DNA of 64,000 bases from a virus. Taxonomy: Duplodnaviria > Heunggongvirae > Uroviricota > Caudoviricetes. The DNA lies in the IMG/VR virus record IMGVR_UViG_3300025896_000022. The stretch is one strand, 5' to 3'. The translations under genes and the position numbers were made by a program. The notes beneath the pieces were generated by a model, which was not told the origin of the DNA, did no database searches, and saw only the letters and a list, made by a program, of their open reading frames with translations. The first letter of the stretch is position 1. Each line of letters begins with the position of its first letter. This document shows, in pieces, positions 3,451-26,888 of the stretch.

Positions 3451-3762
3451 TTAGCACCTATGATAATGTTGAATGTTTTCTTTTCTAGTTAACCATTCTA
3501 GATTAATATAGTCGTTATTAGATTTTACTTTATCAATATGATTGACAGTTTCTTTATTGTAAGGATTTGCAACAAAATACTTTGCTACTAATCTATGTAT
3601 TTTTACTTTAGTAACTTTACCATTTGTAGAAATATTACAATAATTATATCCTCTTGCGTTGACATTTTGTTTAAGAATTTGCTTTTTACTATTCTTAAAC
3701 CTTCCTAAACTTGAAATAAAGTAATTAGGGTTCTCTATAAGTTGTTTCCATTGTTCTTTCAT
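3451..3762 (-). CDS. HNH homing endonuclease (NUMOD4 + HNH_3-like)
   Basis: 'NYFISSLGRFKN' is a NUMOD4-like motif. 'HRLVAKYFV…NHIDKVKSNNDYINLEWLTRKEN' is an HNH motif. Confidence 0.7.
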   Translation of the reverse strand: MKEQWKQLIENPNYFISSLGRFKNSKKQILKQNVNARGYNYCNISTNGKVTKVKIHRLVAKYFVANPYNKETVNHIDKVKSNNDYINLEWLTRKENIQHYHRC

Positions 3763-4433: not shown

Positions 4434-5282
4434 TTATCTATTTAATAAAATATTAGAACTTGAACCAAAAACATTATTAGAACCATAAGGAGATACACCT
4501 CTATTTGCCCATACTCTTTCTGTTTCTGCTTTATATAATTCTAGTAACTTAGGTTGAGATAATATTTCTTTTGTCTTAGCATCAAATATTGCTGCTTCAT
4601 AATTACCTTTTGCTAATGCAACTTTTTTCAATGCAGTTTGTTCAGCTTGTTTAGTTTGAGATATAATAGTTGCTGTTTCTTGTAGTACTGCAATCTTTCT
4701 TTCAATAGCTGCTTTATATGATTTAGGTAATTGCATTTTAAGAATTGCAATATTATTTAATGTAAATCCTTCTTTTTCTAATGCTATTGTTAAAGTTTTA
4801 CTTACTTCTGATTCGTATATGTTTCTATGTTGTAACAAACTATCTGATGCAAATCCTACAGCATTATCTAATAACTCTTTTCTGACAATAGTTCTAACTC
4901 TTGAATTAATTAAATCTTCCATATCAACTCTATATTTTATAAATAAATCAGCTGCTCTTGCTCTTTGCAACTGTAAGTTAATAGATACATCTAATCCAAA
5001 TGTAGCTCCATCTGCAGATGTTACATCAATATGTTCATCTGTTGGAGAATCTTCACTATCATCTGCTGTCCAAACTTTATGTTGAACTGATGTTGGATAC
5101 ATAAATACATCCTGTGTTGGTGGGAAATAAAAGATAAATCCACTTGCCATTTCAATATTTGGAACACCTTTATCATTTCCAATTTGATCTACTACTAATG
5201 CAACTTCACTTGAATCAGCTGTTGTACATGATGTTACAATCATTGATAAAACTACTCCTAATAACCATAATGATTTTTTCAT
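4434..5282 (-). CDS. SPFH/band-7 (prohibitin/HflC-like) domain lipoprotein
   Basis: It has a signal peptide plus lipobox (VLSMIVTSC). The C-terminal half has an SPFH-like pattern (…EKEGFTLNNIAILKMQLPKSYKAAIERKIAVLQE…QAEQTALKKVALAKGNYEAA…). Confidence 0.5.
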   Translation of the reverse strand: MKKSLWLLGVVLSMIVTSCTTADSSEVALVVDQIGNDKGVPNIEMASGFIFYFPPTQDVFMYPTSVQHKVWTADDSEDSPTDEHIDVTSADGATFGLDVSINLQLQRARAADLFIKYRVDMEDLINSRVRTIVRKELLDNAVGFASDSLLQHRNIYESEVSKTLTIALEKEGFTLNNIAILKMQLPKSYKAAIERKIAVLQETATIISQTKQAEQTALKKVALAKGNYEAAIFDAKTKEILSQPKLLELYKAETERVWANRGVSPYGSNNVFGSSSNILLNR

Positions 5283-5285
5283 AAT

Positions 5286-5519
5286 CTAATTTTTGTTTAA
5301 TTTGTTTTTAATAATTTTTATTATTTGTTTAAATATCAACATATTCCAAAAAGATGCTGAAAAAATTGTCAAAAGTAGTGATGCTAAACCCATCACAAAG
5401 GCAAATGTAGATGGTTTACTCATTAAATGCAAACTTAACACAACCATTCCTATTGTAGAAATGGCTATGATAAATAAGCAAACTAATAGTAACCAAATAT
5501 TGTTTAATAATTTAGTCAT
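5286..5519 (-). CDS. small integral membrane protein with two predicted TM helices. It may be an NfeD/YqiJ-like partner of the SPFH protein.
   Basis: 77 aa and strongly hydrophobic. It is immediately downstream of the SPFH gene, separated from it by 4 nt. Confidence 0.4.
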   Translation of the reverse strand: MTKLLNNIWLLLVCLFIIAISTIGMVVLSLHLMSKPSTFAFVMGLASLLLTIFSASFWNMLIFKQIIKIIKNKLNKN

Positions 5520-7372
5520 TATATGATCATTTTTTCTTTGATTAATTTATCTACTTTTTTAGATACATATGAAATCATATCATTTGGTAGATTTTCTATG
5601 TTTGTCATTTTAATAAAATAATCAAACATCTCTTCTGAAGGTACTTCTTCATCAATTGCAATTTGAATTACTTGAAATCCTAATGCTTGTGCCATAGTAA
5701 CCTTTTTTCTGGTGTCATTGATAGCAGCTTGACCATTATATCCACTTGCTGCTGGTTGACCATCAGAAATAACAAATAATAATCCTGGATCAGGTGTTTT
5801 ATTTCTAACACGTTTAGCAACAGCATAAATTGCATCGCCATCTCTATTGTAACTTCTTGCTCTTGCAGAACCTAATGCATATGGATCCATGTTTGTTCCT
5901 GGTTCACGATAAATTCTAATAGTACAATCTTGACTTTTTTCATCTGCAGTATGACCATAAATATACAATTGAACATCAGGTTGCTTTTTAAATACTTCAT
6001 TGATGAAAATTGCTGCTTGACGTGCTTTTGGCATTCTTTCACCACAACCCATAGAACCTGATTCATCAATCAATACAGTTATATTAACTTTATTAGTTGT
6101 TACTTGACCAAATCTTTCATAAATAGTTGGCACTCTTTGAATTGCTTCTGCAAGTTTATTAGTATCTAGTCTACCTGAACGCATGGATTTCATAGAAAAC
6201 TGATAATCTTTTGCTTTACGTGAAAATAACTTAGCAAGAACTTGAGCTTTTGTACTATTAATTTTTGTTAAATCTTTTAGATATTTGTTTTTATCAGTTT
6301 CAGATTTTACAAAATAAACTTTACCATCAAATGATTCACCAGTTTTACTAAAATTATGACTTGAAGCCATTGCTCTTTTTTCTTTCATGTCGTCAGTAAA
6401 ATCATCAAAATCATCTTGAAAATCATCTGAATTATCACCATCAGGTGCATTCATCATTCCTTCCATCATTTTTGATGCTAAATCATTCATGTCAGATTTA
6501 CTTGGTTTAGGTGCTTTTCCACCAGAACCTTCATCTTCATTTTCTTCTTTACCTTCGCCTTCACCATCACCTTTTTCTTCTTCTTTCTTTTCTTCTGCAA
6601 CAATGAATTTATCAATTACACCAGAAAGATATTGAGCTTGTCTTTCACAATCTGCAGATGTAATTGGAAATCCATGTTTTTTCATGTAATTTTCAATCTG
6701 CGAAAGAGGTTTTGCAAACTCTTCTACTTCTTCATCAGTTACATGTGCTGGATACCTAAGAAATTTAGTAATAGTTTCAGTAAGTCTTTTTCCAGCATGT
6801 TCTTCTTCACCAAGTGGTTCATATGTTTTATCATATTTATACTGTTTAAATTTTTGAACAAACTTAGAATAACCTGGAAATCTATCTGCTAATTTTTTGT
6901 CAACTCTTTCAGTATTTAGTATTGAAAACATCAAATCTTTTACTGTTGTAGTAGTAGCACTATTTCGCGCATTCATGGTACGTGAGTATTCGCTTCTTGT
7001 TTGCAAGGTTGCAAGAGCTGCATTTTGAATTGCAGCACCATAAAACGCATCTAAAAGCTCTACATCATGATTCATATATTCACCATCTTCTGAACGTAAC
7101 ATGTTCAAAGGAACTGGAATAGTTGTTTTATCACTTACTGCTCTAAGTTTATTTGAATGATCAAATTTTATATCTTTTGGAACACCAATTACTCTAAACA
7201 TAGAACCAATCATTTTGGCTGCGGATCTTAAGTTTTGATTATCTCTTACAAAATAAGAAGAGTAACCTGTTCTACCAGAATCCCAATCAAACAACTTTTT
7301 ACTTGGATCATAAAAAGAATAAGCATCTTCTTCTTTTCTTTTCCACCAGTCTTTTTTAAATTTTATACTCAT
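5519..7372 (-). CDS. cobT: von Willebrand factor A (vWA) domain protein, CobT-like
   Basis: The C-terminal 'VLIDESGSMGCGERMPKARQAAIFINEVF…VISDGQP' is a vWA MIDAS (DxSGS) motif. It has an acidic low-complexity linker and is 617 aa. It sits next to a MoxR/CobS-like AAA+ gene. Confidence 0.55.
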   Translation of the reverse strand: MSIKFKKDWWKRKEEDAYSFYDPSKKLFDWDSGRTGYSSYFVRDNQNLRSAAKMIGSMFRVIGVPKDIKFDHSNKLRAVSDKTTIPVPLNMLRSEDGEYMNHDVELLDAFYGAAIQNAALATLQTRSEYSRTMNARNSATTTTVKDLMFSILNTERVDKKLADRFPGYSKFVQKFKQYKYDKTYEPLGEEEHAGKRLTETITKFLRYPAHVTDEEVEEFAKPLSQIENYMKKHGFPITSADCERQAQYLSGVIDKFIVAEEKKEEEKGDGEGEGKEENEDEGSGGKAPKPSKSDMNDLASKMMEGMMNAPDGDNSDDFQDDFDDFTDDMKEKRAMASSHNFSKTGESFDGKVYFVKSETDKNKYLKDLTKINSTKAQVLAKLFSRKAKDYQFSMKSMRSGRLDTNKLAEAIQRVPTIYERFGQVTTNKVNITVLIDESGSMGCGERMPKARQAAIFINEVFKKQPDVQLYIYGHTADEKSQDCTIRIYREPGTNMDPYALGSARARSYNRDGDAIYAVAKRVRNKTPDPGLLFVISDGQPAASGYNGQAAINDTRKKVTMAQALGFQVIQIAIDEEVPSEEMFDYFIKMTNIENLPNDMISYVSKKVDKLIKEKMII

Positions 7373-7378
7373 GACTTT

Positions 7379-7600
7379 TTATTTTTTATTAAATTCTAAA
7401 ATTATTACATGTGGATTTAATTCTTTAAAAAGTTTTAATTGCTGATTAAGTGGAGAATTTTCATTTTCTAAATTTTCAACATGTAATCGAACACTTTCAA
7501 CTAAATTTCCAATTGTATCATATTTGACAATTTCTTTTTCAATACCATGTATCATGGCTTGCCACATTTGTTTACTTGGTAAACTTCGTTCTTTTTCCAT
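7379..7600 (-). CDS. hypothetical protein
   Basis: 73-aa ORF. Confidence 0.3.
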   Translation of the reverse strand: MEKERSLPSKQMWQAMIHGIEKEIVKYDTIGNLVESVRLHVENLENENSPLNQQLKLFKELNPHVIILEFNKK

Positions 7601-7757
7601 GTTCTTTTTCTATTAAACTTTTCTTTTTTGCACGAAACTCACCCCAATCATTGTTATGACGATTCCACATGTTATATACATTTTCAGGAATATCTTTAAG
7701 TGCAATTAATCCTTGTTTGAATTTTGCAACAATTGTATGTTTATAAGTTTTACCCAT
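7572..7757 (-). CDS. hypothetical basic protein
   Basis: 61-aa ORF. Confidence 0.3.
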   Translation of the reverse strand: MGKTYKHTIVAKFKQGLIALKDIPENVYNMWNRHNNDWGEFRAKKKSLIEKEHGKRTKFTK

Positions 7758-7831
7758 ATTTTTGTAATTTTATGTATGATAAATCCAACACTAACTGTTA
7801 AATTCTGTATTACGGTATGCTATATATAACA

Positions 7832-8455
7832 TTATCGTACTCTTATTTTTTGTTTTTTATTAATCGTTACTGATTGATTTTTTGAAAATGAAATTGCAAG
7901 TTTTATAACTTTTTGCAAAAGTGTTGTTTGCAAAGATTCACCATTTTCAATTAAACTTAAAGTTGAACGATTGATATTTAAATAATCACATAATTGTGAT
8001 TGAGTTAATTTGTAAGACCACCTTACACTTTTGAAAAAATGTGGTAAATCATTAAGAAAATGATCCATATTTTCCAAAAATTCAGTTTTTAATTCAAAAA
8101 ATAAAATTGATTTTGCTTCTTTCATTAGTGCAACATTGAATAAATTTTGATTTATTGCAGTAAATTCAGATATCCAAAACAACTCTTTATTTGAAAGTTG
8201 ATCTAACAAAATATCTTTTTCAAGTATTTCAACTTTTGGTGATAACTGAAGAATTCTTAGTTCTTCAACCCATTTTCTTACATGTTCATTATGCGAGTAA
8301 TGCACGTGTTTTATAGGTCTTTCAACACCAATTGTTGTTTTACCAACATAAACTCCCAAGTCATTTCTTGGATCTTTTAAAACATAAATAAGATTTGTTG
8401 TTTCCATAGTAGTATCTCTTTTTAATAAGATACTAAATAATGTTGGAAAAAACAA
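7832..8455 (-). CDS. GIY-YIG-like nuclease domain protein with a C-terminal XRE-type HTH
   Basis: The N-terminus 'IYVLKDPRNDLGVYVGKTT…R' is GIY-YIG-like. The C-terminus 'LTQSQLCDYLNINRSTLSLIENGE' is HTH_XRE-like. Confidence 0.4.
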   Translation of the reverse strand: MFFPTLFSILLKRDTTMETTNLIYVLKDPRNDLGVYVGKTTIGVERPIKHVHYSHNEHVRKWVEELRILQLSPKVEILEKDILLDQLSNKELFWISEFTAINQNLFNVALMKEAKSILFFELKTEFLENMDHFLNDLPHFFKSVRWSYKLTQSQLCDYLNINRSTLSLIENGESLQTTLLQKVIKLAISFSKNQSVTINKKQKIRVR

Positions 8456-8505
8456 ACAAAATAGCTATTAGTGAAGGATATATCATACAAGATTGCTTGA
8501 TCCTA

Positions 8506-9780
8506 TTAAAACGCAGCAATAATTGATAATACTTTACTACGTTCAGAAGTACCAATACCATCTTCAAAAAGAGGCATAATAACACTTTGAATTGCGCTAG
8601 TAAGTTCAAAACCATCTACAATTAATCCAGCAGTTTGTAAAGTATGTCTTACTGAAACTGGAGTAGATAATTCTTGGTCTTTATATTGTTTTCTAATTTC
8701 ATTAGAAACTTTAACAATAGCAGATGCAGATTTTTCATCAACACCTGTACGAATTTTTAAGATGTTAATTTCATCTTCTTCTTGAGGATATCCTAATTCA
8801 ATAGGAAAAAATCTATCTAACAATGCTCTATCTATAGCGTTAGTACCAGAGTACTCAGAACCTAGATTAGCAGTTGCAAAAAATACAGTTTCTGGATTTA
8901 CTTGAACTTGACGATCACATTCTTCACAAGCGACATCTACAGGTAAATATCTTCTGTTATCTAAACAAGGAAACAAGATATTATTTGCAGCTAAAGGTGC
9001 TCTGTTTAACTCGTCAAGAAGTACAATGCCTCCAGATTTAATGTGTCCAACAAAAGGTGCAAATTCAAATTCTGAATGACCTAATTTACCAATTCTGTGA
9101 ACGCCTAGTAATGCTGATTGAGCATCTTGAACAGTACCCATATCTTGTATGTACAATGGTTTTGCCATTGCTTTTGCAAGGTGATTTAACAATTCTGTTT
9201 TACCTGAACCTGTAGGTCCCATAAGTAAAGTATTTTCACCTCTCAACACATTTCTCACAAGTAAGTACCAGATATCTGGTTCAATGTGAAAACCACAATC
9301 TTCCTTGGTAGGCACTGGATAATTTGCAGAAATTGTACGCTTTAAATTAGTTCCTGCAGGAAGTGCTTCACCAGCAGCAGGTAATGCAAATTTTGCATCC
9401 CAATCAAATTTGTAACCATAAGGTTCATATTTAGTTGCCATTTCTTTTGCTTTTTCCACACCAAATTCTGAATGATCAATCATATAATCAATCAAAAAGT
9501 CTACAAGTGGAATACGTGATGGATCACTAATAGGAAATACATCATTCATGTAATACATTGCTGTAATACCTTCTTTACGAATATGTAAGTGATCTGATTC
9601 AGGAAAATCATAACCATCTGCACAGAATACTGTACCTAATGGAAATTTTACAATGTCAGCAATAGGTGCTGTTATTTTAATATCTTTTACGTTGATAGGT
9701 AAACTTTTTTCAAAAGATTGACCTGCTAATGTTTCAACTTCAAAAGATGTACCGTTTAATAATGCTCTAAATAGGATCAT
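8506..9780 (-). CDS. cobS: AAA+ ATPase of the MoxR / CobS-like family
   Basis: Walker A is 'LLMGPTGSGKTELLNHLA'. Walker B / sensor is 'IVLLDELNRAPLAANNILFPCLD' followed by 'FFATANLG'. This is an AAA_5-type arrangement, and it sits next to a vWA protein. Confidence 0.65.
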   Translation of the reverse strand: MILFRALLNGTSFEVETLAGQSFEKSLPINVKDIKITAPIADIVKFPLGTVFCADGYDFPESDHLHIRKEGITAMYYMNDVFPISDPSRIPLVDFLIDYMIDHSEFGVEKAKEMATKYEPYGYKFDWDAKFALPAAGEALPAGTNLKRTISANYPVPTKEDCGFHIEPDIWYLLVRNVLRGENTLLMGPTGSGKTELLNHLAKAMAKPLYIQDMGTVQDAQSALLGVHRIGKLGHSEFEFAPFVGHIKSGGIVLLDELNRAPLAANNILFPCLDNRRYLPVDVACEECDRQVQVNPETVFFATANLGSEYSGTNAIDRALLDRFFPIELGYPQEEDEINILKIRTGVDEKSASAIVKVSNEIRKQYKDQELSTPVSVRHTLQTAGLIVDGFELTSAIQSVIMPLFEDGIGTSERSKVLSIIAAF

Positions 9781-15674: not shown

Positions 15675-16013
15675 TTAAGAATTACCATTAGGATCACGTA
15701 GATCTTCTACTTCATCTTCATCATCCTCTGGAAAATGTTTATTCCATTCATCGGGTGTTATACCTGATATAAGAAATTCTCTATCATCTGTTGATAAGTG
15801 AGGCATAGCATCTTGTATATAAGAACCAGATTGCCATTTATTAAATTGTTCTTGTGTAACATCAATATCTAATGTACGTGTTATACCTGTTAGAGTTGAT
15901 TCTTTTGTTATTTTCATTTCTAATATGTTGTTAATTATTAATTGAGTGAAAGAAATTTGCGGGGTTTTACTACTCTTTAAAAATCTATTATATATATAAG
16001 TAATAAAGAACAT
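15675..16013 (-). CDS. hypothetical protein with an acidic C-terminus
   Basis: 112-aa ORF. Confidence 0.35.
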   Translation of the reverse strand: MFFITYIYNRFLKSSKTPQISFTQLIINNILEMKITKESTLTGITRTLDIDVTQEQFNKWQSGSYIQDAMPHLSTDDREFLISGITPDEWNKHFPEDDEDEVEDLRDPNGNS

Positions 16014-16155
16014 ATATAGATAGATATAAGTTAACTAAGTAGTATTGTATGTGTGTAACTATGTTGTTAACTAGTGTTTTATATGGTTATATAGCCATAT
16101 AGTGACGAGTTTTATTTGTTAAAATACAATATTTTTAAAGTAGATTAATAGTTTA

Positions 16156-16187
16156 GAGGGTGTTTTCATGTCATTATTAACACCCTC
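16156..16187 (-). terminator. hairpin GAGGGTGTT-14 nt-AACACCCTC
   Basis: Perfect 9-bp stem. It belongs to the same 'GAGGGTG/CACCCTC' hairpin family as 17382..17405. Confidence 0.35.
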
Positions 16188-16262
16188 ATGACTATTTTAC
16201 AAACCAATTGTATTTTGTAATCTGTTGTGTGTCAAGGATTTAAAAAAAACTAGTCTCAATTT

Positions 16263-16308
16263 CCTATATATAAGGTATAAGACATTACATCTACTCCTTA
16301 TATATAGG
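16263..16308 (-). terminator. 13-bp perfect inverted repeat CCTATATATAAGG-20 nt-CCTTATATATAGG, 20 nt downstream of the stop of gene 16329..16817. On the minus strand a T8 run follows it.
   Basis: Read directly from the sequence. Confidence 0.5.
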
Positions 16309-16328
16309 TCATTAAGAATTAATAGTTA

Positions 16329-16817
16329 TTAAAGTTCTGCTGTTGCTGTTGATTTAACAGTTGCATTACTTTTAACTACTACATTGTCATGTGCAATTAA
16401 CACATCTTGTTCATTACCTGTTGCGTCATAGGTAGAGAATCTTAAAATTCTTTCACCACCTAGAGTTAACTCGTCACCATCAGCACCTGCACGCTTTATG
16501 TAACTACTAATAGAAGTTTCATAATCAACATTTTTGTTGAGTTGTGCAGCGATGTTCTCAGGTAGTTGAGACTCAAGATATTCTCTGGTGACAATCTTAC
16601 CAGGAACTTGTAAACTCTTATGAGCACTAACAAAAGTCTTTAAGATTTCTGTTGTTGCACGTAATATACATGCGCGTTTTTGCTCACGTATCCAACCATC
16701 AGCACCTATACTGATTGCTGTTTGTTGCAACTGAATATAACCATATTCAGGATTTGATTTATAGTTTGTTATCAAACTATTTGACTTGCTGTTAACTACG
16801 ATTTGTACTGTAGACAT
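16329..16817 (-). CDS. hypothetical protein, paralogue A of a tandem pair
   Basis: 162 aa. Its sequence closely matches ORF 17416..17928 ('ADGWIRE…LNKNVDYETSIS.YIKRAG.DG.ELTLGGERILRF…IAHDN…'). It has its own flanking non-coding regions and terminator. Confidence 0.5.
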   Translation of the reverse strand: MSTVQIVVNSKSNSLITNYKSNPEYGYIQLQQTAISIGADGWIREQKRACILRATTEILKTFVSAHKSLQVPGKIVTREYLESQLPENIAAQLNKNVDYETSISSYIKRAGADGDELTLGGERILRFSTYDATGNEQDVLIAHDNVVVKSNATVKSTATAEL

Positions 16818-17381
16818 AACTAAATTTAATTAAAGATTAATACTAAATTCAATTGGGGGTAGAGAGTAGTATGTAGACAACCTTTTCTCAGGGTGGTTGT
16901 GTACCTCTATTCAAGTGGTTTCGAGTGGTTAAATTTATACTCCTCTGGGAAGTGGAAAAAAATTTTAATAAAGTTGTCTCCACCCTGTGTATAAAGTAGA
17001 CCACTATTTTATAACCATGTGATTATCAGTCATTTGTATTTGTAGTAAAATAATAATAAATGTTGAGAAAGAACTCAATTCAGAGTGGTTTAACTTCTAT
17101 TCAGTGGTGTAACCAAGGATATATTACCACCTATACTTATTGAATAAAGATTGATTTGATGTTGAGAAAGAACTGCTAGTTATTTAGCAGCTCAATCTCA
17201 AATCAATGGGTAGTTATTTATTAAGTTTTTTCCATTCTTTATAATCATTCAAATCAGAAAGTTCTATTTCTTTTAGTACACTTTCATATATTTCTTCAGC
17301 ATGTTTTTGCGATTTTGCAGGGTATACTAATCCCTTGACAATAAAGTATTTCATGAGTTATTTATTAAGAGTTATAAAATA

Positions 17382-17405
17382 AGAGGGTGCAATTACACAC
17401 CCTCT
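17382..17405 (-). terminator. hairpin AGAGGGTG-8 nt-CACCCTCT immediately 3' of the minus-strand gene 17416..17928
   Basis: Perfect 8-bp stem, 10 nt after the stop codon. Confidence 0.45.
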
Positions 17406-17415
17406 TGATTAATTA

Positions 17416-17928
17416 CTACAATTCAGCTTTAGCAGTAGCATCTGATTTAGCAGCCATAACTTCACTGATATTATCATGCGCAATTCTTGCGTCTTGAGAT
17501 AATCCAGATGGATCATACGAAGTGAAGCGTAGTATTCTCTCACCTCCTAATGTTAATTCAACACCATCTTTTCCTGCACGTTTAATGTAAGGAGAGATAG
17601 ATGTTTCATAATCAACATTCTTATTTAATCGTGAACTATAAGATTCAGGAATCTGAGACTCCAGAAACTCGTTCACAATTATTTTACCAGGAAGTGTTAA
17701 GTTTTTACTATTTGCAACAAACTTCTCTAGTATCACAATTTCTGCACGCATTAAAGTACTGCGTGAAGATTCTCTAATCCAACCGTCTGCACTCACAGAC
17801 ATTTCAGATGAATTAAGAGTAATAAAACCATAGTCTGCATTATTTTTATACACACTGATAATTGCGCCATCTTTTCCTGGCTTAATAGAAACATTATTCA
17901 TAATAAAATATTTAATATTTAGTCGCAC
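17416..17928 (-). CDS. hypothetical protein, paralogue B of the tandem pair
   Basis: 170 aa. It matches ORF 16329..16817 over most of its length. Confidence 0.5.
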   Translation of the reverse strand: MRLNIKYFIMNNVSIKPGKDGAIISVYKNNADYGFITLNSSEMSVSADGWIRESSRSTLMRAEIVILEKFVANSKNLTLPGKIIVNEFLESQIPESYSSRLNKNVDYETSISPYIKRAGKDGVELTLGGERILRFTSYDPSGLSQDARIAHDNISEVMAAKSDATAKAEL

Positions 17929-18444
17929 TTATTAGTAGGCAGCGACTTACTCCTGTATTATTTGGGTGGAAGACAGTAGCGACTAACACCCATGTTATTA
18001 TTTATTTGAGTTAAAGTCAAACATTAATAATAAAGTAGACACTAGTGATATAACACTAGTTACAGCAAATGCTGTCATGTACATTACACGATCTGGATTA
18101 GTATTACACCAACCTCCAACTGGAGTGATAGCAATAGTTAGAATCCACAACCACATTGAGATGATGAACAACATCATCTTGAAATTTTCTCTGAGTTTCA
18201 TAATAGAAATTTTTAAAGAGTTATTAATAAAGTTAAAGACTGCCTATATGCATCATATAAATAAATCATGGATGTACAGTCCATGAGTTTTAGTCTGTCA
18301 GGTATCAACGAGTGTTGATGCTACTCTTCCTTGCAGTAGTCACGGAAGTACTTGAACGCTTCTTTCCATGACATAGCAACTATAGAGTATCCTGAGATAA
18401 AATAAATAGTACGCATATGATTACATAATTAGTCTGCATTTCAA

Positions 18445-18494
18445 GGGGGGTAGAGGGTAGATGCGCAAGACTGGGGGAGGCGTTAGGTAGGGGG
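18445..18494 (+). other. G-rich tract (G6, G3, G5, G5 runs) able to form a G-quadruplex, inside a ~360-nt structured non-coding island (18290-18650)
   Basis: Read directly: GGGGGGtagaGGGtagatgcgcaagactGGGGGaGGcgttaggtaGGGGG. The local GC is far above the genome background. Neighbouring hairpins are GCGGTG-attaa-CACCGC and CCCTAGcag…ctaCTAGGG. Confidence 0.4.
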
Positions 18495-18649
18495 TACCAC
18501 CATTCTAACACACAGTATATTTGTATTCCTCCTGTCAAAAAATATTTACAAAATTTTATTACTGCGGTGATTAACACCGCTATTCACTGCAAAAATAAAC
18601 CCTAGCAGAATTAACTACTAGGGTGATTTATGTATTACTATATAGGATA

Positions 18650-19582: not shown

Positions 19583-19816
19583 ATGTTTAGTAAACCAACA
19601 ACATCGCATTCTTCTTTATTACAGAAGAAAACAAAAATATTAAATGTATTTGTTGTTATGCAAGATGAATTAAAAAAGTTACATGATGAACAAAAAGATT
19701 ATGCAACTAATATTCAAGCAAAATTAAAAGAGTTGTCTGATGAACTTACATCAGTTGAAACAAGTAGAGCAGAGACTACAAAAACCATTAACAAAATTGA
19801 AACAATATTAAAATAA
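19583..19816 (+). CDS. hypothetical coiled-coil protein
   Basis: 77-aa ORF. Confidence 0.35.
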   Translation: MFSKPTTSHSSLLQKKTKILNVFVVMQDELKKLHDEQKDYATNIQAKLKELSDELTSVETSRAETTKTINKIETILK

Positions 19817-20016
19817 TGGAAGATTTTGTAAAACGCATGCACGAAGAGTTAGAGCAGTTAAAAGAAAAAAAAGATAAGTTAAATGACTTTATCACTAATA
19901 ATCCAAAGTTTAGCGAACTAACAAATATCAATAGAATTTTATTGATAAATCAATTTAACGCAATGGAGTTATATTATTATGCTCTTGAATCAAGAATAGA
20001 ATTTATTAACGATTAA
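19816..20016 (+). CDS. hypothetical protein
   Basis: 66-aa ORF whose start overlaps the previous stop (ATGA). Confidence 0.35.
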   Translation: MEDFVKRMHEELEQLKEKKDKLNDFITNNPKFSELTNINRILLINQFNAMELYYYALESRIEFIND

Positions 20017-20490: not shown

Positions 20491-20562
20491 TGCGTGAAGG
20501 TGTAAATGGTTGCATACAGGTCTCATAAACCTAGAGGGGTGGTTCGAGTCCACGACACGCTA
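20491..20562 (+). tRNA. tRNA-like element, possibly tRNA-Met/Ile2 (CAT), with a canonical T-loop GGTTCGAGTCC but several stem mismatches. It may be degenerate.
   Basis: A manual fold gives the anticodon loop CTCATAA, the T-arm GGTGG-TTCGAGT-CCACG and a D-loop AAATGGTT. The acceptor pairs at only 5 of 7 positions. This needs tRNAscan-SE. Confidence 0.3.
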
Positions 20563-20572
20563 CTAAATTACT

Positions 20573-20929
20573 GGGGATGACTGGTTTTGACAGGTCATTA
20601 GTAAGTAGTACAATCAGCCAGAGAGATAACTGTAAACTAAGGTGAATTTAATAAATGACAACAAAGTAATTTCGTTAGATGCTGACCAAGTTAGTGCTAA
20701 CATGAGCAAAGTTTTTTCATTAATTAATGCAGATGTCGAAGAGTTAGAAATAGCTGCGTAGTAAGCATCAACAAGATTTATCAGTTCGATTAAACTGATT
20801 GGTGGTTTTGTCTACATTAGTAGATCCCAGAGTGCTCCTGTAGACTCTTTAAATAAGTATGGGTGCAAAAGCTGTATAAATTGTATTATTGACCATGGTT
20901 TGGACAGGGGTTCGACTCCCCTCATCTCC
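20573..20929 (+). ncRNA. ssrA: tmRNA (ssrA-like, one-piece) carried by the phage
   Basis: The 5' end GGGGATGACTGGTTTTGACAGG matches the tmRNA consensus GGGGnUGnnnnGGnUUCGACnGG. The 3' end GGACAGGGGTTCGACTCCCCTCATCTCCA forms a T-arm (AGGGG-TTCGACT-CCCCT). Its acceptor strand CATCTCC pairs 7/7 (one G·U) with the 5' GGGGATG. The internal tag frame ends …GCA GAT GTC GAA GAG TTA GAA ATA GCT GCG TAG TAA (20729-20764), giving the putative tag A-DVEELEIAA. Confidence 0.7.
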
Positions 20930-21019
20930 ACAAGTGTATGTTATTATAGACAATATCTTATCTATTGTCTATAATAACACACATTAATAACTAATATATT
21001 AGTTAAAAACCTAACAACA

Positions 21020-23444: not shown

Positions 23445-23634
23445 TATTATGAAACTAAATAGATTATACAACTGGTTATTTCATTATAACCCACATACAG
23501 AAAATTGGAATGCATTTCATAGAGATGACCAATCTGCATACTGGAATAAAACAGAAAAAACACATCCTGTATTTACAGCAAAAGAATTTAATGAGTTAAT
23601 AAAAATATTACACACCTCAAATTTATGTATATAA
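23425..23634 (+). CDS. hypothetical protein
   Basis: 69-aa ORF overlapping both neighbours. Confidence 0.3.
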   Translation: MLTTKCNIMKLNRLYNWLFHYNPHTENWNAFHRDDQSAYWNKTEKTHPVFTAKEFNELIKILHTSNLCI

Positions 23635-26600
23635 GTGTACCAACTCATGATTGTGAATTAGATTCATGGTCTGTAACAGACTTTGAAACAAGGGAATTGT
23701 TTGTAGAGTTTCTGACAAAAATGTTCAAGGTTCCTGGTACTTATGAATTTGATGAATGTTCTAACAAGTTTAACGAACAAGCACAGTTATTTAATAAAAA
23801 TAATAAAGTATATTGTGTATCACCTTTACGTTCAAAAGATTATGTAACGTATTGGGATGACCAAAAAGCAAAATGTAGATATGGAGTTATATATAAAAGT
23901 AATGGAAAGACTTGGTATTTAACTAGAGAATATTACATGTGGTTAAATTTTTTGCCTATATATGATAAAGAAGAAGCACGATTTGGATTTGCAAAAGTCA
24001 GAGACGCTCAGTATCATATGGCATTATATGAAGAACTTGCTAGACATTCTTATAAGCATGTTGTTATATTAAAGAAACGTCAGATTGCGTCAAGTTATTA
24101 TCATGGTGCAAAAATGATAAATTACTTTTGGTTTGAAGAAGGTTCTATTAGTAAAATGGCAGGTTCACTTAAAGACTATATTAATGAAAAAGGTACTTGG
24201 CGTTTTCTTGAAGAATATAGAAACTTTTTAAATACTTATACAGCATGGTACAGACCATGTACTCCAGATAAAGTACTTAACTGGGAACAAAAAATTGAAA
24301 TTAATCAAGGTGGTAAAAAACGAGATGTTGGTTTAAAATCAGTTATATTTGGATTAGTACTTGATAAAGATCCTACAAATGGTGTAGGTGGACCATGTAC
24401 ATTATTTTTTCATGAAGAAGCAGGTATTGCACCTAAGATGAATATGACAATGGAATACTTGTTGCCTGCAATGAAATCGGGTATGATATATACTGGTCAA
24501 TTTATTGCAGCAGGTTCAGTAGGAGATTTAGCACAATGTGAACCATTGCGTGAAATGTTAATGAATCCAGATGGTAAAGACATTCTTGCTGTTGAAACTA
24601 ATTTGATTAATGATAAAGGTGAGATTGGAATGTGCGGATTATTTATTCCAGAACAATGGTCAATGTTACCTTGTATTGATGAATATGGTAATTCACAAGT
24701 TGAACTTGCATTAGAAATGATTCTTGCAGAAAGAATAGTATGGAAAAAGAAACTTAAACCAGATGATTATCAACTTCGTATTTCTCAGAAACCTATTAAC
24801 ATTGCTGAAGCATTTGCACATAGAACAAGATCTGTATTTCCATTACACTTGGTAACACAACAACTTAGAAGAATTGAAGAAGGAGAATATTATAAAGAAT
24901 TTTTAGATTTAAATCGTGATGAAACTGGTAAAGTAGTTGCTAAAGAATCTAAAAAAATACCAATATCTGAATTTCCATTATCATCAAAAACTGAAGATAA
25001 AGAAGGTGTTTTAGTTGTATGGGAAAGACCACATAAAGATCCAATATTTGGAATGTATTACGCATCTGTCGATCCAGTTGCTGAAGGAAAGGCAGAGCAT
25101 GTTGATAATATGCTCTATACACCAAAAGGTAGAAAAAGAATAGGTGATATTCAAATAGGTGATAAAGTAACTGGTTCTAATGGAGAAGTTATTAATGTGA
25201 TTGGTGTTTACCCACAAGGAGTTAAAAAAATGTGTAAAATAACGTTTAGTGATGGACATAGTATTAAAGTATGTGAAGATCATTTATGGAATGTAAAATT
25301 AAATGGCGGAACAAAAGGATATATTACACTTTCTGTAAAAGATTTATTAAACAATACTAAAACAATTACATATAATGGAACAGGTAGAAATACTAAAAAA
25401 GAATATACAATTTCTACTTATTATAAAGATAAACAAAATAGAAATAAATGGTCAATACCAATAGTTAAACCTATTAGTTTTGATTTTGGTAAAATATTAC
25501 CTGTTAATCCTTATTTACTAGGTTTACTATTAGGTGATGGAGGATTATCTCAAAAATCTATTAGATTTAGTACAGTTGACACTGAGTTAATAAATTCTAT
25601 TGAACACATATTAGAAGATGACTTATTAATAAAAAAAGTTAAAAATTCAAATTGTGATTATACAATTATTACAAAAGTTGGTTCAAGAAATTCATTAACT
25701 AAAAGATTAAAAGAATTAGGTTTAAAAGGTAAAAGGTCCGAAGATAAATTTATACCACAAGAATACCTATATGCATTAGGATCTTGTAGATTATCTTTAT
25801 TACAAGGATTAATGGATACAGATGGTTCTTATTCAAATCATGGAGCAGAATTTTACTCATCATCAAAAAAATTAGCTTATCAAGTTGTTGAATTAGTACA
25901 ATCATTAGGAGGAATAGCAAAAATAAGATGTAAAAAAACAACTCATTTAGATTCTTATATTGTAAGAGTATTATTGCCTGAATATCTTAATCCTTTTATA
26001 CTAAAAAGAAAAAGAGAAATATATAAACCATCAAAAGTATTTAGCAAATACATAACAAATATAGAATACATTAATGACGCAGAAGCAATATGTATATCTG
26101 TTGATGCTCTTGATAATCTTTATGTTACGGAACATGCTATAGTTACACATAACACAACAACATCAGATTCATTATGTTCTATTTATGTATATAAAACATC
26201 TCAAGAAATTACAACACATAAATCTGATGGCACAATTGAATCTAATATTGAACGCGATAAAATTGTAGCTGCATGGTGTGGTAGATTTGATGATTTAAAT
26301 AAAACACATGAAAGACTTGAGTTAATTATTGAATGGTATAATGCGTGGACAATATGTGAAAATAACGTTAGTGCATTTATTCAGCATATGATTGCGCGTA
26401 GAAAACAAAAGTATTTAGTACCAAAAAATCAAATTATGTTTCTTAAAGAAATACAAGCAAACATGAATGTATTTCAAGAATATGGTTGGAAAAATGTTGG
26501 TACTATGTTTAAAGTAAATATTATACCATATGGTAAACAATTTCTTGAAGAAGAATTAGATTATGAAACTAAAACAGATGGTACTATTGTCAAAACTACA

Positions 26601-26888
26601 TATGGTGTAGAAAGAATACCAGACATCATGTTGTTAAAAGAAATGGCAGCATATAGAGATGGATTAAACGTGGATAGGATTATTGCTTTTTGTGCATTAG
26701 TTGCATTTGCAAAAGTGCAAGAATCCAATCGTGGTTACACTAAACGTGTTGAAAGAGAAGATGATAATTTGCAAAAGTCAAATAAAAATGCTAAATTGAG
26801 AGTGAGTCCATTTAGACATATGGGTGGTTCATATTCAATTAATTCATCTATGAGAAAACCTCATAATCCTTTTAAAAACATAAGATAA
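23625..26888 (+). CDS. terL: terminase large subunit (TerL) with an in-frame intein of about 347 aa carrying a LAGLIDADG homing endonuclease
   Basis: It has an ATPase-like N-terminal half and a Walker-B-like 'CTLFFHEEAG'. The nuclease-domain first catalytic motif 'SVDPVAEGK…' is interrupted by an intein. The intein shows a Hint N-block (GRKRIGDIQIGDKVTGSNGEVINV), two LAGLIDADG motifs (LLGLLLGDGGL; LQGLMDTDGSY) and a C-terminal '…VTHN|T' junction. The extein resumes 'TTTSDSLCSIYVY', matching the 'D.sa' part of the terminase nuclease motif. Confidence 0.7.
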   Translation: MYISVPTHDCELDSWSVTDFETRELFVEFLTKMFKVPGTYEFDECSNKFNEQAQLFNKNNKVYCVSPLRSKDYVTYWDDQKAKCRYGVIYKSNGKTWYLTREYYMWLNFLPIYDKEEARFGFAKVRDAQYHMALYEELARHSYKHVVILKKRQIASSYYHGAKMINYFWFEEGSISKMAGSLKDYINEKGTWRFLEEYRNFLNTYTAWYRPCTPDKVLNWEQKIEINQGGKKRDVGLKSVIFGLVLDKDPTNGVGGPCTLFFHEEAGIAPKMNMTMEYLLPAMKSGMIYTGQFIAAGSVGDLAQCEPLREMLMNPDGKDILAVETNLINDKGEIGMCGLFIPEQWSMLPCIDEYGNSQVELALEMILAERIVWKKKLKPDDYQLRISQKPINIAEAFAHRTRSVFPLHLVTQQLRRIEEGEYYKEFLDLNRDETGKVVAKESKKIPISEFPLSSKTEDKEGVLVVWERPHKDPIFGMYYASVDPVAEGKAEHVDNMLYTPKGRKRIGDIQIGDKVTGSNGEVINVIGVYPQGVKKMCKITFSDGHSIKVCEDHLWNVKLNGGTKGYITLSVKDLLNNTKTITYNGTGRNTKKEYTISTYYKDKQNRNKWSIPIVKPISFDFGKILPVNPYLLGLLLGDGGLSQKSIRFSTVDTELINSIEHILEDDLLIKKVKNSNCDYTIITKVGSRNSLTKRLKELGLKGKRSEDKFIPQEYLYALGSCRLSLLQGLMDTDGSYSNHGAEFYSSSKKLAYQVVELVQSLGGIAKIRCKKTTHLDSYIVRVLLPEYLNPFILKRKREIYKPSKVFSKYITNIEYINDAEAICISVDALDNLYVTEHAIVTHNTTTSDSLCSIYVYKTSQEITTHKSDGTIESNIERDKIVAAWCGRFDDLNKTHERLELIIEWYNAWTICENNVSAFIQHMIARRKQKYLVPKNQIMFLKEIQANMNVFQEYGWKNVGTMFKVNIIPYGKQFLEEELDYETKTDGTIVKTTYGVERIPDIMLLKEMAAYRDGLNVDRIIAFCALVAFAKVQESNRGYTKRVEREDDNLQKSNKNAKLRVSPFRHMGGSYSINSSMRKPHNPFKNIR
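25110..26153 (+). mobile_element. intein (Hint domain plus LAGLIDADG endonuclease) within terL. The C-terminal boundary is well defined (His-Asn 26148-26153, then Thr+1). The N-terminal boundary is approximate.
   Basis: See the TerL entry. The residue at the inferred N-terminal junction is not a canonical Cys/Ser, so the exact start may lie a few codons away. Confidence 0.6.

Follow-up and report, generated by a model that had tools for sequence, protein, structure and literature searches.

Two tandem paralogues in a crAss-like phage: a promoter-like motif and a terminator for each copy, and a possible role in replication

What do two adjacent, related phage genes do if each appears to carry its own control signals and neither resembles an annotated protein? 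This question is raised by a locus in the IMG/VR virus record IMGVR_UViG_3300025896_000022, from which a stretch of 64,000 nucleotides (nt), here called the window, was analysed. A preliminary description of the window had pointed to two open reading frames (ORFs), 16329..16817 and 17416..17928, as separately regulated and highly expressed paralogues, possibly abundant early proteins or host-takeover factors. Here the two genes are called A and B. Their architecture, with two old paralogues, a promoter-like motif and a terminator for each, and a leader hairpin before B that appears to be under selection, is well supported by comparison with related loci. Their function is more tentative, and the possibility that we favour is a role in replication resembling that of single-stranded DNA-binding proteins (SSBs).

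The window has ~29% G+C and is part of a metagenomic contig of 123.3 kb. The coding strand switches near 19.2 kb, where a structural module begins on the plus strand. This rightward arm contains the large terminase, the portal and the major capsid protein, and its top matches in the PHROG database are terminase, portal and head families. The major capsid protein has only 22-28% identity to deposited sequences, the closest being that of Leptolyngbya phage Lbo-JY46 and the next ones those of gut crAss-like and Cellulophaga phages. From the capsid and PHROG matches and the size of the contig, the source is a deep, uncultivated crAss-like phage. The divergent region is 1.3-2.9 kb away from the pair, which is part of the leftward arm. 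The features on which the argument depends are the following.

16329..16817, minus strand: paralogue A, the downstream copy, an ORF of 162 amino acids (aa) from an unannotated family
17416..17901, minus strand: paralogue B, the upstream copy, 161 aa, with its start at ATG 17901
16841..16867, minus strand: promoter-like motif P_A, ACTCTCTACCCCC-N9-TAGTA, scoring 32.7 on a position weight matrix (PWM), with its YAG at 16845, 28 nt before the start of A
17951..17977, minus strand: promoter-like motif P_B, CTTCCACCC-N9-CAGGA, PWM score 27.3, with its YAG at 17955, 54 nt before the start of B
17921..17947, minus strand: B leader stem-loop, with the sequence AGTCGC, a 15-nt loop TGCCTACTAATAAGT, and GCGACT
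16240..16327, minus strand: putative intrinsic terminator after A, a composite stem (16248-16327) with a 13-bp TATATA core, followed by U8 (16240-16247)
17372..17406, minus strand: putative intrinsic terminator after B, an 11-bp G+C-rich stem (hairpin 17381-17406) followed by UUAUUUUAU

The pair and its control signals

A and B are clearly paralogous, as had been proposed (BLASTP, 85/152 identities or 56%, expect value (E) 6e-64). At the DNA level their best match reaches ~73% identity across 130 nt. The preliminary description had doubted that such similarity could come from an assembly duplication, and this doubt was justified. With DNA that is at most 73% identical, and with the pair present in >30 independent assemblies, a duplication made during assembly is ruled out. 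Identical copies of A are also found in public assemblies (P0001). In the case of B the gene stands, but its listed start at GTG 17928 does not; ATG 17901 is the most likely start, because both the family profile and a public gene call of 161 aa (P0041) begin there. The GTG is also disfavoured because a gene extended to it would run into the leader hairpin, which is conserved. With the family alignment as query, a scan of IMG/VR gave 44 loci, 37 of which are close relatives. A tandem pair on the same strand is present in 31 of these 37, in phages of ~120 kb and with the copies 200-1360 nt apart, and in the remaining six single-copy loci the contig edge lies directly past the gene. In a neighbour-joining tree, the upstream and downstream copies of the window's subclade fall into separate clades, and the duplication is therefore older than the split between these phages. 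The tandem paralogues A and B are thus old and non-redundant, and both copies are retained under constraint.

When the regions upstream of family genes are aligned across relatives, they share a motif on the coding strand consisting of ACCCCC(C), 8-9 nt, and YAG(T/G)A. A PWM built from 18 instances in relatives matches the window at exactly three sites, all on the minus strand (scores 32.7, 27.3 and 20.2, against a shuffle maximum of 15.6), and all three precede a conserved start codon by 20-54 nt. Among relatives, the P_A motif is kept upstream of A-type genes and the P_B motif is kept as well. A scan for sigma-70 promoters found no TTGACA/TATAAT-type site at P_A or P_B, and the count of sigma-70-like sites across the region is at chance (24 against 23.2 expected). 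The Bacteroidota element TAnnTTTG does not occur in the 60 nt upstream of either start codon, as judged by direct reading without a formal scan, and neither start codon of the pair is preceded by a Shine-Dalgarno sequence. In its position and conservation the motif looks like a compact phage-specific promoter, and we infer from these two properties that it is a promoter specific to this clade. It is likely that phage-directed transcription machinery would read ACCCCC-N8-9-YAG, because the motif is unlike the consensus promoters of sigma-70 and of Bacteroidota.

At the other end of each gene, past the stop codon and on the coding strand, a stem-loop is followed by a run of U, as in intrinsic terminators. 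The 13-bp CCTATATATAAGG/CCTTATATATAGG hairpin that had been noted after A is real (16263-16275 and 16296-16308), and the terminator stem there abuts the U8 (-27 kcal/mol, z -5.3). The hairpin is kept in two relatives (L005 and L006) with altered stem ends. The AGAGGGTG/CACCCTCT hairpin at 17382-17405 was likewise found to be real and terminator-like (-16.3 kcal/mol, z -4.7), and the terminator after B is conserved in L004 and L005. Terminator-like sites as a whole are enriched between 15.5 and 19.3 kb, with 7 against 1.0 ± 1.1 expected. Since each gene has a conserved promoter-like motif and a hairpin with U-tract of its own, the first proposal that the two are independent, separately regulated units is supported. 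The further suggestion that each gene is flanked by 300-600 nt of non-coding DNA holds for A, with 396 nt upstream and ~410 nt downstream when the next gene is taken from ATG 15917, but not for B, which has 96 nt upstream and lies 61 nt from a 46-aa ORF.

Upstream of B, attention had been drawn to the hexamer AGTCGC as a possible repeated binding motif for a regulator. The hexamer does occur three times, at 17921-17926 (plus strand), 17942-17947 (minus) and 17979-17984 (minus), about 10 nt away from the coordinates first given; these copies within 64 nt make up three of the four in the 64 kb. The inverted pair AGTCGC-15 nt-GCGACT was also described correctly. The idea of a regulator-binding repeat is not supported, and a threefold operator is rejected, since two of the copies are the arms of a covarying stem and the third is missing in the closest relative (L004). 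The stem-loop starts 8 nt past the CAGG of P_B and lies 20-30 nt upstream of the start codon, which is not occluded. By itself the hairpin is weak (-8.2 kcal/mol, z -0.55). The covariation is that of the sister clade, the stem being invariant in the window's own clade. The homologous stem of the sister clade differs in sequence (GCACTAT/ATAGTGC, with variants), and in 11 sequences all 77 of 77 cells are paired, with five of the seven pairs changed on both sides. None of 500 shuffles reaches this covariation, and it collapses in slid registers. The 13-nt loop of the sister clade, GGCCTTNAGAATT, is invariant at 12 of 13 positions, the N position being the variable one, and has GCCT…AAT in common with the window's own loop. 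One variant (L035) has G-U pairs, and because these are possible on the sense strand only, a structure at the RNA level is favoured. On this comparative evidence the B leader stem-loop is kept by compensatory changes around a conserved loop, in the manner of a structured mRNA leader. More speculatively, the hairpin may stabilise the mRNA, or it may act as an operator for post-transcriptional, possibly autogenous, control. A search of the window and of the loci of its relatives gave no RNA partner complementary to the loop.

The protein family and its possible functions

The family to which A and B belong is large, with 531 clusters at 50% identity from freshwater and marine (Tara) assemblies, and it has escaped annotation. 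No Pfam match was found for A or B, no PHROG match for the single sequences or for any of the 42 members of the family alignment, no match in NCBIfam, and none in the PDB, either by single sequence or by profile. A tblastn search with four divergent members against 50,697 deposited phage genomes gave no match, nor did blastn of the region against GenBank phages, and two pattern-seeded scans of GTDB genomes, one with the family alignment and one with a transmembrane-bearing subgroup, gave no relatives. Pfam searches of the long and fused members showed no informative additional domains, and no description of the clade or the protein family was found in the literature. Within the alignment of 42 sequences, 20 columns are invariant, and the conserved aromatic and basic residues include W42, R44, R48, R53, K108, R109, R123, R126 and F127.

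An AlphaFold2 model of A is confident, with a predicted local distance difference test (pLDDT) of 84.5 and a predicted template modelling score of 0.71. The predicted order of elements, strand-strand-strand-helix-strand...strand, is compatible with an oligonucleotide/oligosaccharide-binding (OB) fold, and residues 147-162 at the C-terminus are predicted to be disordered (pLDDT <50). Structure searches with this model gave no significant neighbour. OB folds of SSB, PriB and editosome proteins recur among the best of the weak, non-significant matches, and a search of BFVD gave one unnamed protein at E 0.009. In the family the tip of the tail reads (A/N/D)(L/F)P-x or APF, with DAPF or DVPF in a few members. 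HU/IHF-like proteins, which are typical of crAss-like phages, have a helical N-terminus followed by beta-arms in ~95 aa. A does not belong among them: it has no corresponding Pfam match, and its model begins with beta-strands and covers 162 aa.

The genomic context gives another indication. In unrelated lineages, a single-copy family gene is found within replication modules. As an example, in a marine lineage HTH_36 comes first, an 89-aa gene, the family member and a further two small genes lie in this order between it and a superfamily 2 (SF2) helicase, and a uracil-DNA glycosylase (UDG), DnaB_C and AAA_24 come next; no Pfam SSB is found within 9 kb on either side of the family gene. In other lineages the family gene lies ~1-1.5 kb upstream of a DNA helicase and near a ThyX or ParB-like gene, and here too a terminator hairpin is present 3' of it. 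High expression of the pair, as had been suggested, is probable if codon usage is accepted as a weak proxy. The G+C content at third codon positions (GC3) is 0.21 in A and B against a window median of 0.126, which ranks them 9-10 of 71 genes, and the preference of A alone for codons ending in C over those ending in T (NNC over NNT) is 0.30, near the 0.32 of the major capsid gene. Judged from position, early timing is plausible.

Taken together, we tentatively read A and B as an abundant SSB-like or DNA-organising replication protein, a possibility to which we give less than an even chance. The two proteins would be made in large amounts and act jointly as a hetero-oligomer of OB-like domains. 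While the phage DNA is replicated or recombined, this complex would coat or organise it, most likely in its single-stranded form. This SSB-like role would be carried out by a fold without detectable sequence relation to known SSBs, and the C-terminal tail, flexible and with a conserved tip, would bring in partner proteins. Fusions of two to three domains, found in seven of 148 family representatives, give a Rosetta-stone hint that these domains work together.

Several observations weigh against an SSB-like role. The chief ones are the missing significant fold match and the transmembrane relatives: in 11 of the 148 representatives transmembrane helices are present outside the domain, which would be unusual for an SSB and which none of the explanations proposed here accounts for. 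Comparison by hhalign gives a probability <0.2 both against E. coli SSB (0.1) and against T7 gp2.5. Neither A nor B has an acidic tail (both end in …AEL), and the isoelectric points are only 5.5-6.1. It should also be kept in mind that the window covers 64 of 123 kb, so that a canonical SSB is possible elsewhere in the genome. As for the expression signals, the promoter assignment is derived solely from position and conservation, and in one subclade (L007-L012) the motif upstream of the B copy is degenerate. Among the transmembrane relatives (P0193, P0226, P0250, P0259, P0121, P0146 and P0185), one to three helices are N- or C-terminal, and some of these proteins share a conserved C-terminal end, …DPDMWRHP.

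What else could the pair be? The transmembrane helices, attached to the domain at its N- or C-terminal side, would be at home in membrane-associated organisers of a phage replication or assembly site, whose tail tip might dock a membrane partner. Phage phi29 p16.7 would be an analogue of such a role, and an ORF of membrane type (67 aa, 17998-18201) lies directly upstream of B. A, B and most members of the family have no transmembrane segment, however, and neither L004 nor L006 conserves the 67-aa neighbour, so we regard this role as improbable. The control signals could instead indicate that A and B are sequence- or structure-specific nucleic-acid-binding regulators of their own small regulon. 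We consider this unlikely. Their target would be the B leader loop, on which they would act as translational repressors in the manner of ssRNA-phage coat proteins or of T4 RegA and gp32, or else it would be the promoter motif with its run of C or the repeated ACCAC…TGAR units described below. A leader loop conserved at 12 of 13 positions while its stem covaries does imply a specific ligand, the promoter motif is limited to this small block of genes, the repeats cluster upstream of P_A, and there are faint Foldseek matches to coat proteins of the PP7/MS2 type. These coat-protein matches are not significant (E 0.1-0.5, template modelling score ~0.2), marine members lie in replication operons that have neither this promoter motif nor the hairpin, and the codon bias and dedicated terminators suggest a level of protein that regulators rarely need. 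A bolder version would join this idea to the SSB-like one: a hetero-oligomer with a new nucleic-acid-binding fold would both coat DNA and bind the B leader loop, giving feedback like that of gp32, and the motif would define a new promoter class read by a phage-directed polymerase. All of this being true at once is a long shot.

The host-takeover role of the preliminary description, widened here to abundant early host-takeover or anti-defence proteins aimed at a host component, found no support, and we consider it unlikely. It would suit the position of A and B in a block of small uncharacterised genes beside a divergent control region, with strong signals of their own, and a family confined to viral and metagenomic sequence, with no member found by the two pattern-seeded scans of GTDB genomes. 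As a rule, takeover and anti-defence genes evolve fast and have a patchy distribution. This family, on the other hand, has 531 clusters and is deeply conserved, with the two genes retained as a pair, and is embedded in the replication modules of other lineages beside helicases, UDG, DnaB and AAA_24. Virion or assembly proteins, such as a decoration or scaffold protein, are least probable, and very much so. The third-position codon composition of A is like that of the major capsid gene, and the genes lie <6 kb from the start of the structural block; but they are on the strand opposite to the structural module, have no structural match in PHROG, and have replication genes as neighbours in other lineages.

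Phage genes that are arranged in tandem and separately terminated are ordinary. What is unusual is a family of this size and conservation for which there is neither an annotation nor a cultured representative nor a structural neighbour, and to which a defined promoter-like motif and a leader hairpin with a covarying stem belong. If the family is truly SSB-like, it would fill an annotation gap for an environmental branch of crAss-like phages and for other aquatic phages; if not, it is still a well-defined and probably highly expressed target for structural work. In both cases the motif and the hairpin give handles for mapping transcription units in uncultivated phages.

Other features of the locus and the window

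Between the two genes and upstream of B, further elements are found.

16887..17108, minus strand: non-coding block before P_A; it contains four direct ACCAC-N0-2-TGAR units and a second AGTTCTTTCTCAAC (17062-17075)
17156..17206, minus strand: strong hairpin or terminator between B and A, with AGTTCTTTCTCAAC as its 3' side (-25.3 kcal/mol, z -8.2)
17214..17354, minus strand: ORF of 46 aa; the variable cassette slot that it occupies lies between the B terminator and the hairpin at 17156..17206
18321..18416, minus strand: 31-aa micro-ORF MRTIYFISGYSIVAMSWKEAFKYFRDYCKEE behind P_C, missed by the ORF listing
18432..18458, minus strand: P_C, the third copy of the promoter-like motif, PWM score 20.2, with its YAG at 18436, 20 nt before the 31-aa ORF

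The cassette slot holds different small ORFs in relatives, behind a common initiation string TAACTCTTAATAAATAACTCATG; in L004 (5238-5678) there are two other small ORFs. At the site equivalent to the hairpin at 17156..17206, relatives have hairpins with different stem sequences followed by a common CAGTTTTTTC(TCAAC) tail. This bears on the direct repeat 'gttgagaaagaact', whose exact copies were confirmed at 17062-17075 and 17161-17174. The 17161 copy can be identified as a terminator tail, because the unlike hairpins of relatives carry the same tail, and the 17062 copy has the same sequence without a significant preceding hairpin (z 0.26). In the block upstream of P_A, four of the window's seven ACCAC-N0-2-TGAR matches lie within 220 nt, all on the minus strand, AGTGGT is clustered (5 of 21 copies), and similar repeated units are present in L005 and L006. 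GGGTG-N-CACCC occurs at 3 sites against 0.12 expected. The inverted repeat CAGGGTGG/CCACCCTG had also been pointed out here, and while it is present (16889-16896 and 16980-16987), it does not hold up as a conserved structure: the long-range stem is no better than shuffles (z -1.2), its 5' arm is missing in L004, and it was rejected. An Rfam search over 15.0-21.5 kb gave no match in the intergenic regions of A and B.

Orthologues of the 31-aa micro-ORF lie behind the same motif in five relatives (L006, L015, L020, L029 and L037). In the window the micro-ORF is followed by hairpins at 18301-18322 and 18266-18286. A tRNA suspected behind a motif copy in L015 was not confirmed. Near P_C, the stretch 18440-18500 has runs of C on the coding strand, with CCCCC at 18494 and 18477 and CCCCCC at 18450. 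These account for four of the seven CCCCC occurrences of that strand in the 64 kb, and only the CCCCCC at 18450 belongs to a scored promoter-like motif.

The ~410-nt non-coding stretch past A (15918-16235, minus strand) has a layout that is conserved in the window, L004, L005 and L006. It contains a near-consensus sigma-70-like site, TTGACA-17-TACAAT, from 16235 to 16207 (11/12; TACAAG in L005 and L006), followed by a GAGGGTG…CACCCTC hairpin at 16147-16196. The loop of this hairpin, AATGATG..TGAAAA, is conserved, and L006 has a compensatory variant. Within this region, 288 nt fold better than shuffles (z -3.4), and the stretch may be a small RNA. The next ORF, listed with 112 aa (15675-16013, minus strand), is probably over-extended. 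It is likely to have 80 aa from ATG 15917, because the L004 orthologue starts with MKITRESTL there.

Elsewhere in the window, a transfer-messenger RNA (tmRNA) gene is found at 20573-20933 on the plus strand (Rfam RF00023, full-length model, 85.2 bits against a gathering threshold of 47, E 1.3e-32), with the tag peptide ADQVSANMSKVFSLINADVEELEIAA according to ARAGORN. Just upstream, 20491-20562 gives a tRNA-like match below threshold (25.5 against 29 bits). The large terminase (23625-26888, plus strand, 1087 aa) has a weak LAGLIDADG_3 match and PHROG matches typical for intein-bearing proteins, and probably contains an intein. Homing-endonuclease-type genes lie in the leftward arm at 1761-2549 and 3451-3762, both on the minus strand, with GIY-YIG and NUMOD1, and HNH_3 and NUMOD4. 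Downstream of the pair, a block at 4434-9780 (minus strand) encodes an SPFH/Band_7 protein, a 617-aa CobT/vWA-like protein and a MoxR-type AAA ATPase (AAA_5/CbbQ_C); it is conserved and also present in L050 and L051. A 66-aa ORF at 19816-20016 (plus strand) has a precomputed Pfam match to PF21825 (Sequestin) in public gene calls.

Comparison with known systems

In comparison with T4 gp32, T7 gp2.5 and bacterial SSB, A and B are likewise small, probably abundant and encoded by genes of replication modules, and in the model they have a beta-rich core with a helix between two long strands, and a disordered tail with a short conserved tip. Unlike these proteins, they show no sequence or profile similarity to SSBs, a structural similarity below significance and tails that are not acidic; some of their relatives are membrane-anchored, and two diverged paralogues are kept adjacent. 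Proteins with several OB domains, such as the two-OB SSB of Deinococcus-Thermus and replication protein A (RPA), are alike in that related domains, present as separate paralogous chains or as fusions of two to three domains, appear to act jointly, and the weak Foldseek matches include an SSB entry from D. radiodurans. The difference is that for the A/B family no homology to them can be demonstrated.

As for the promoter-like motif, the crAss-type phage phi14:2 has conserved phage-specific promoter motifs before particular genes and long, highly transcribed intergenic regions (bioRxiv 10.1101/2020.03.07.982082). Its middle promoters have -35/-10-like blocks and use the host RNA polymerase, and its early promoters have no common motif (bioRxiv 10.1101/2020.03.07.982082). 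The motif in the window differs from these, with ACCCCC-N8-9-YAG having no -35/-10 blocks and only three sites in 64 kb.

Finally, the B leader hairpin can be set beside the MS2/PP7 operators and the leader of T4 gene 32, a gene that is under autogenous control via its structured mRNA leader. The hairpin differs from these in leaving the start codon unoccluded, and resembles them in its covarying stem, its conserved loop and its place between a promoter-like motif and the start of the gene.

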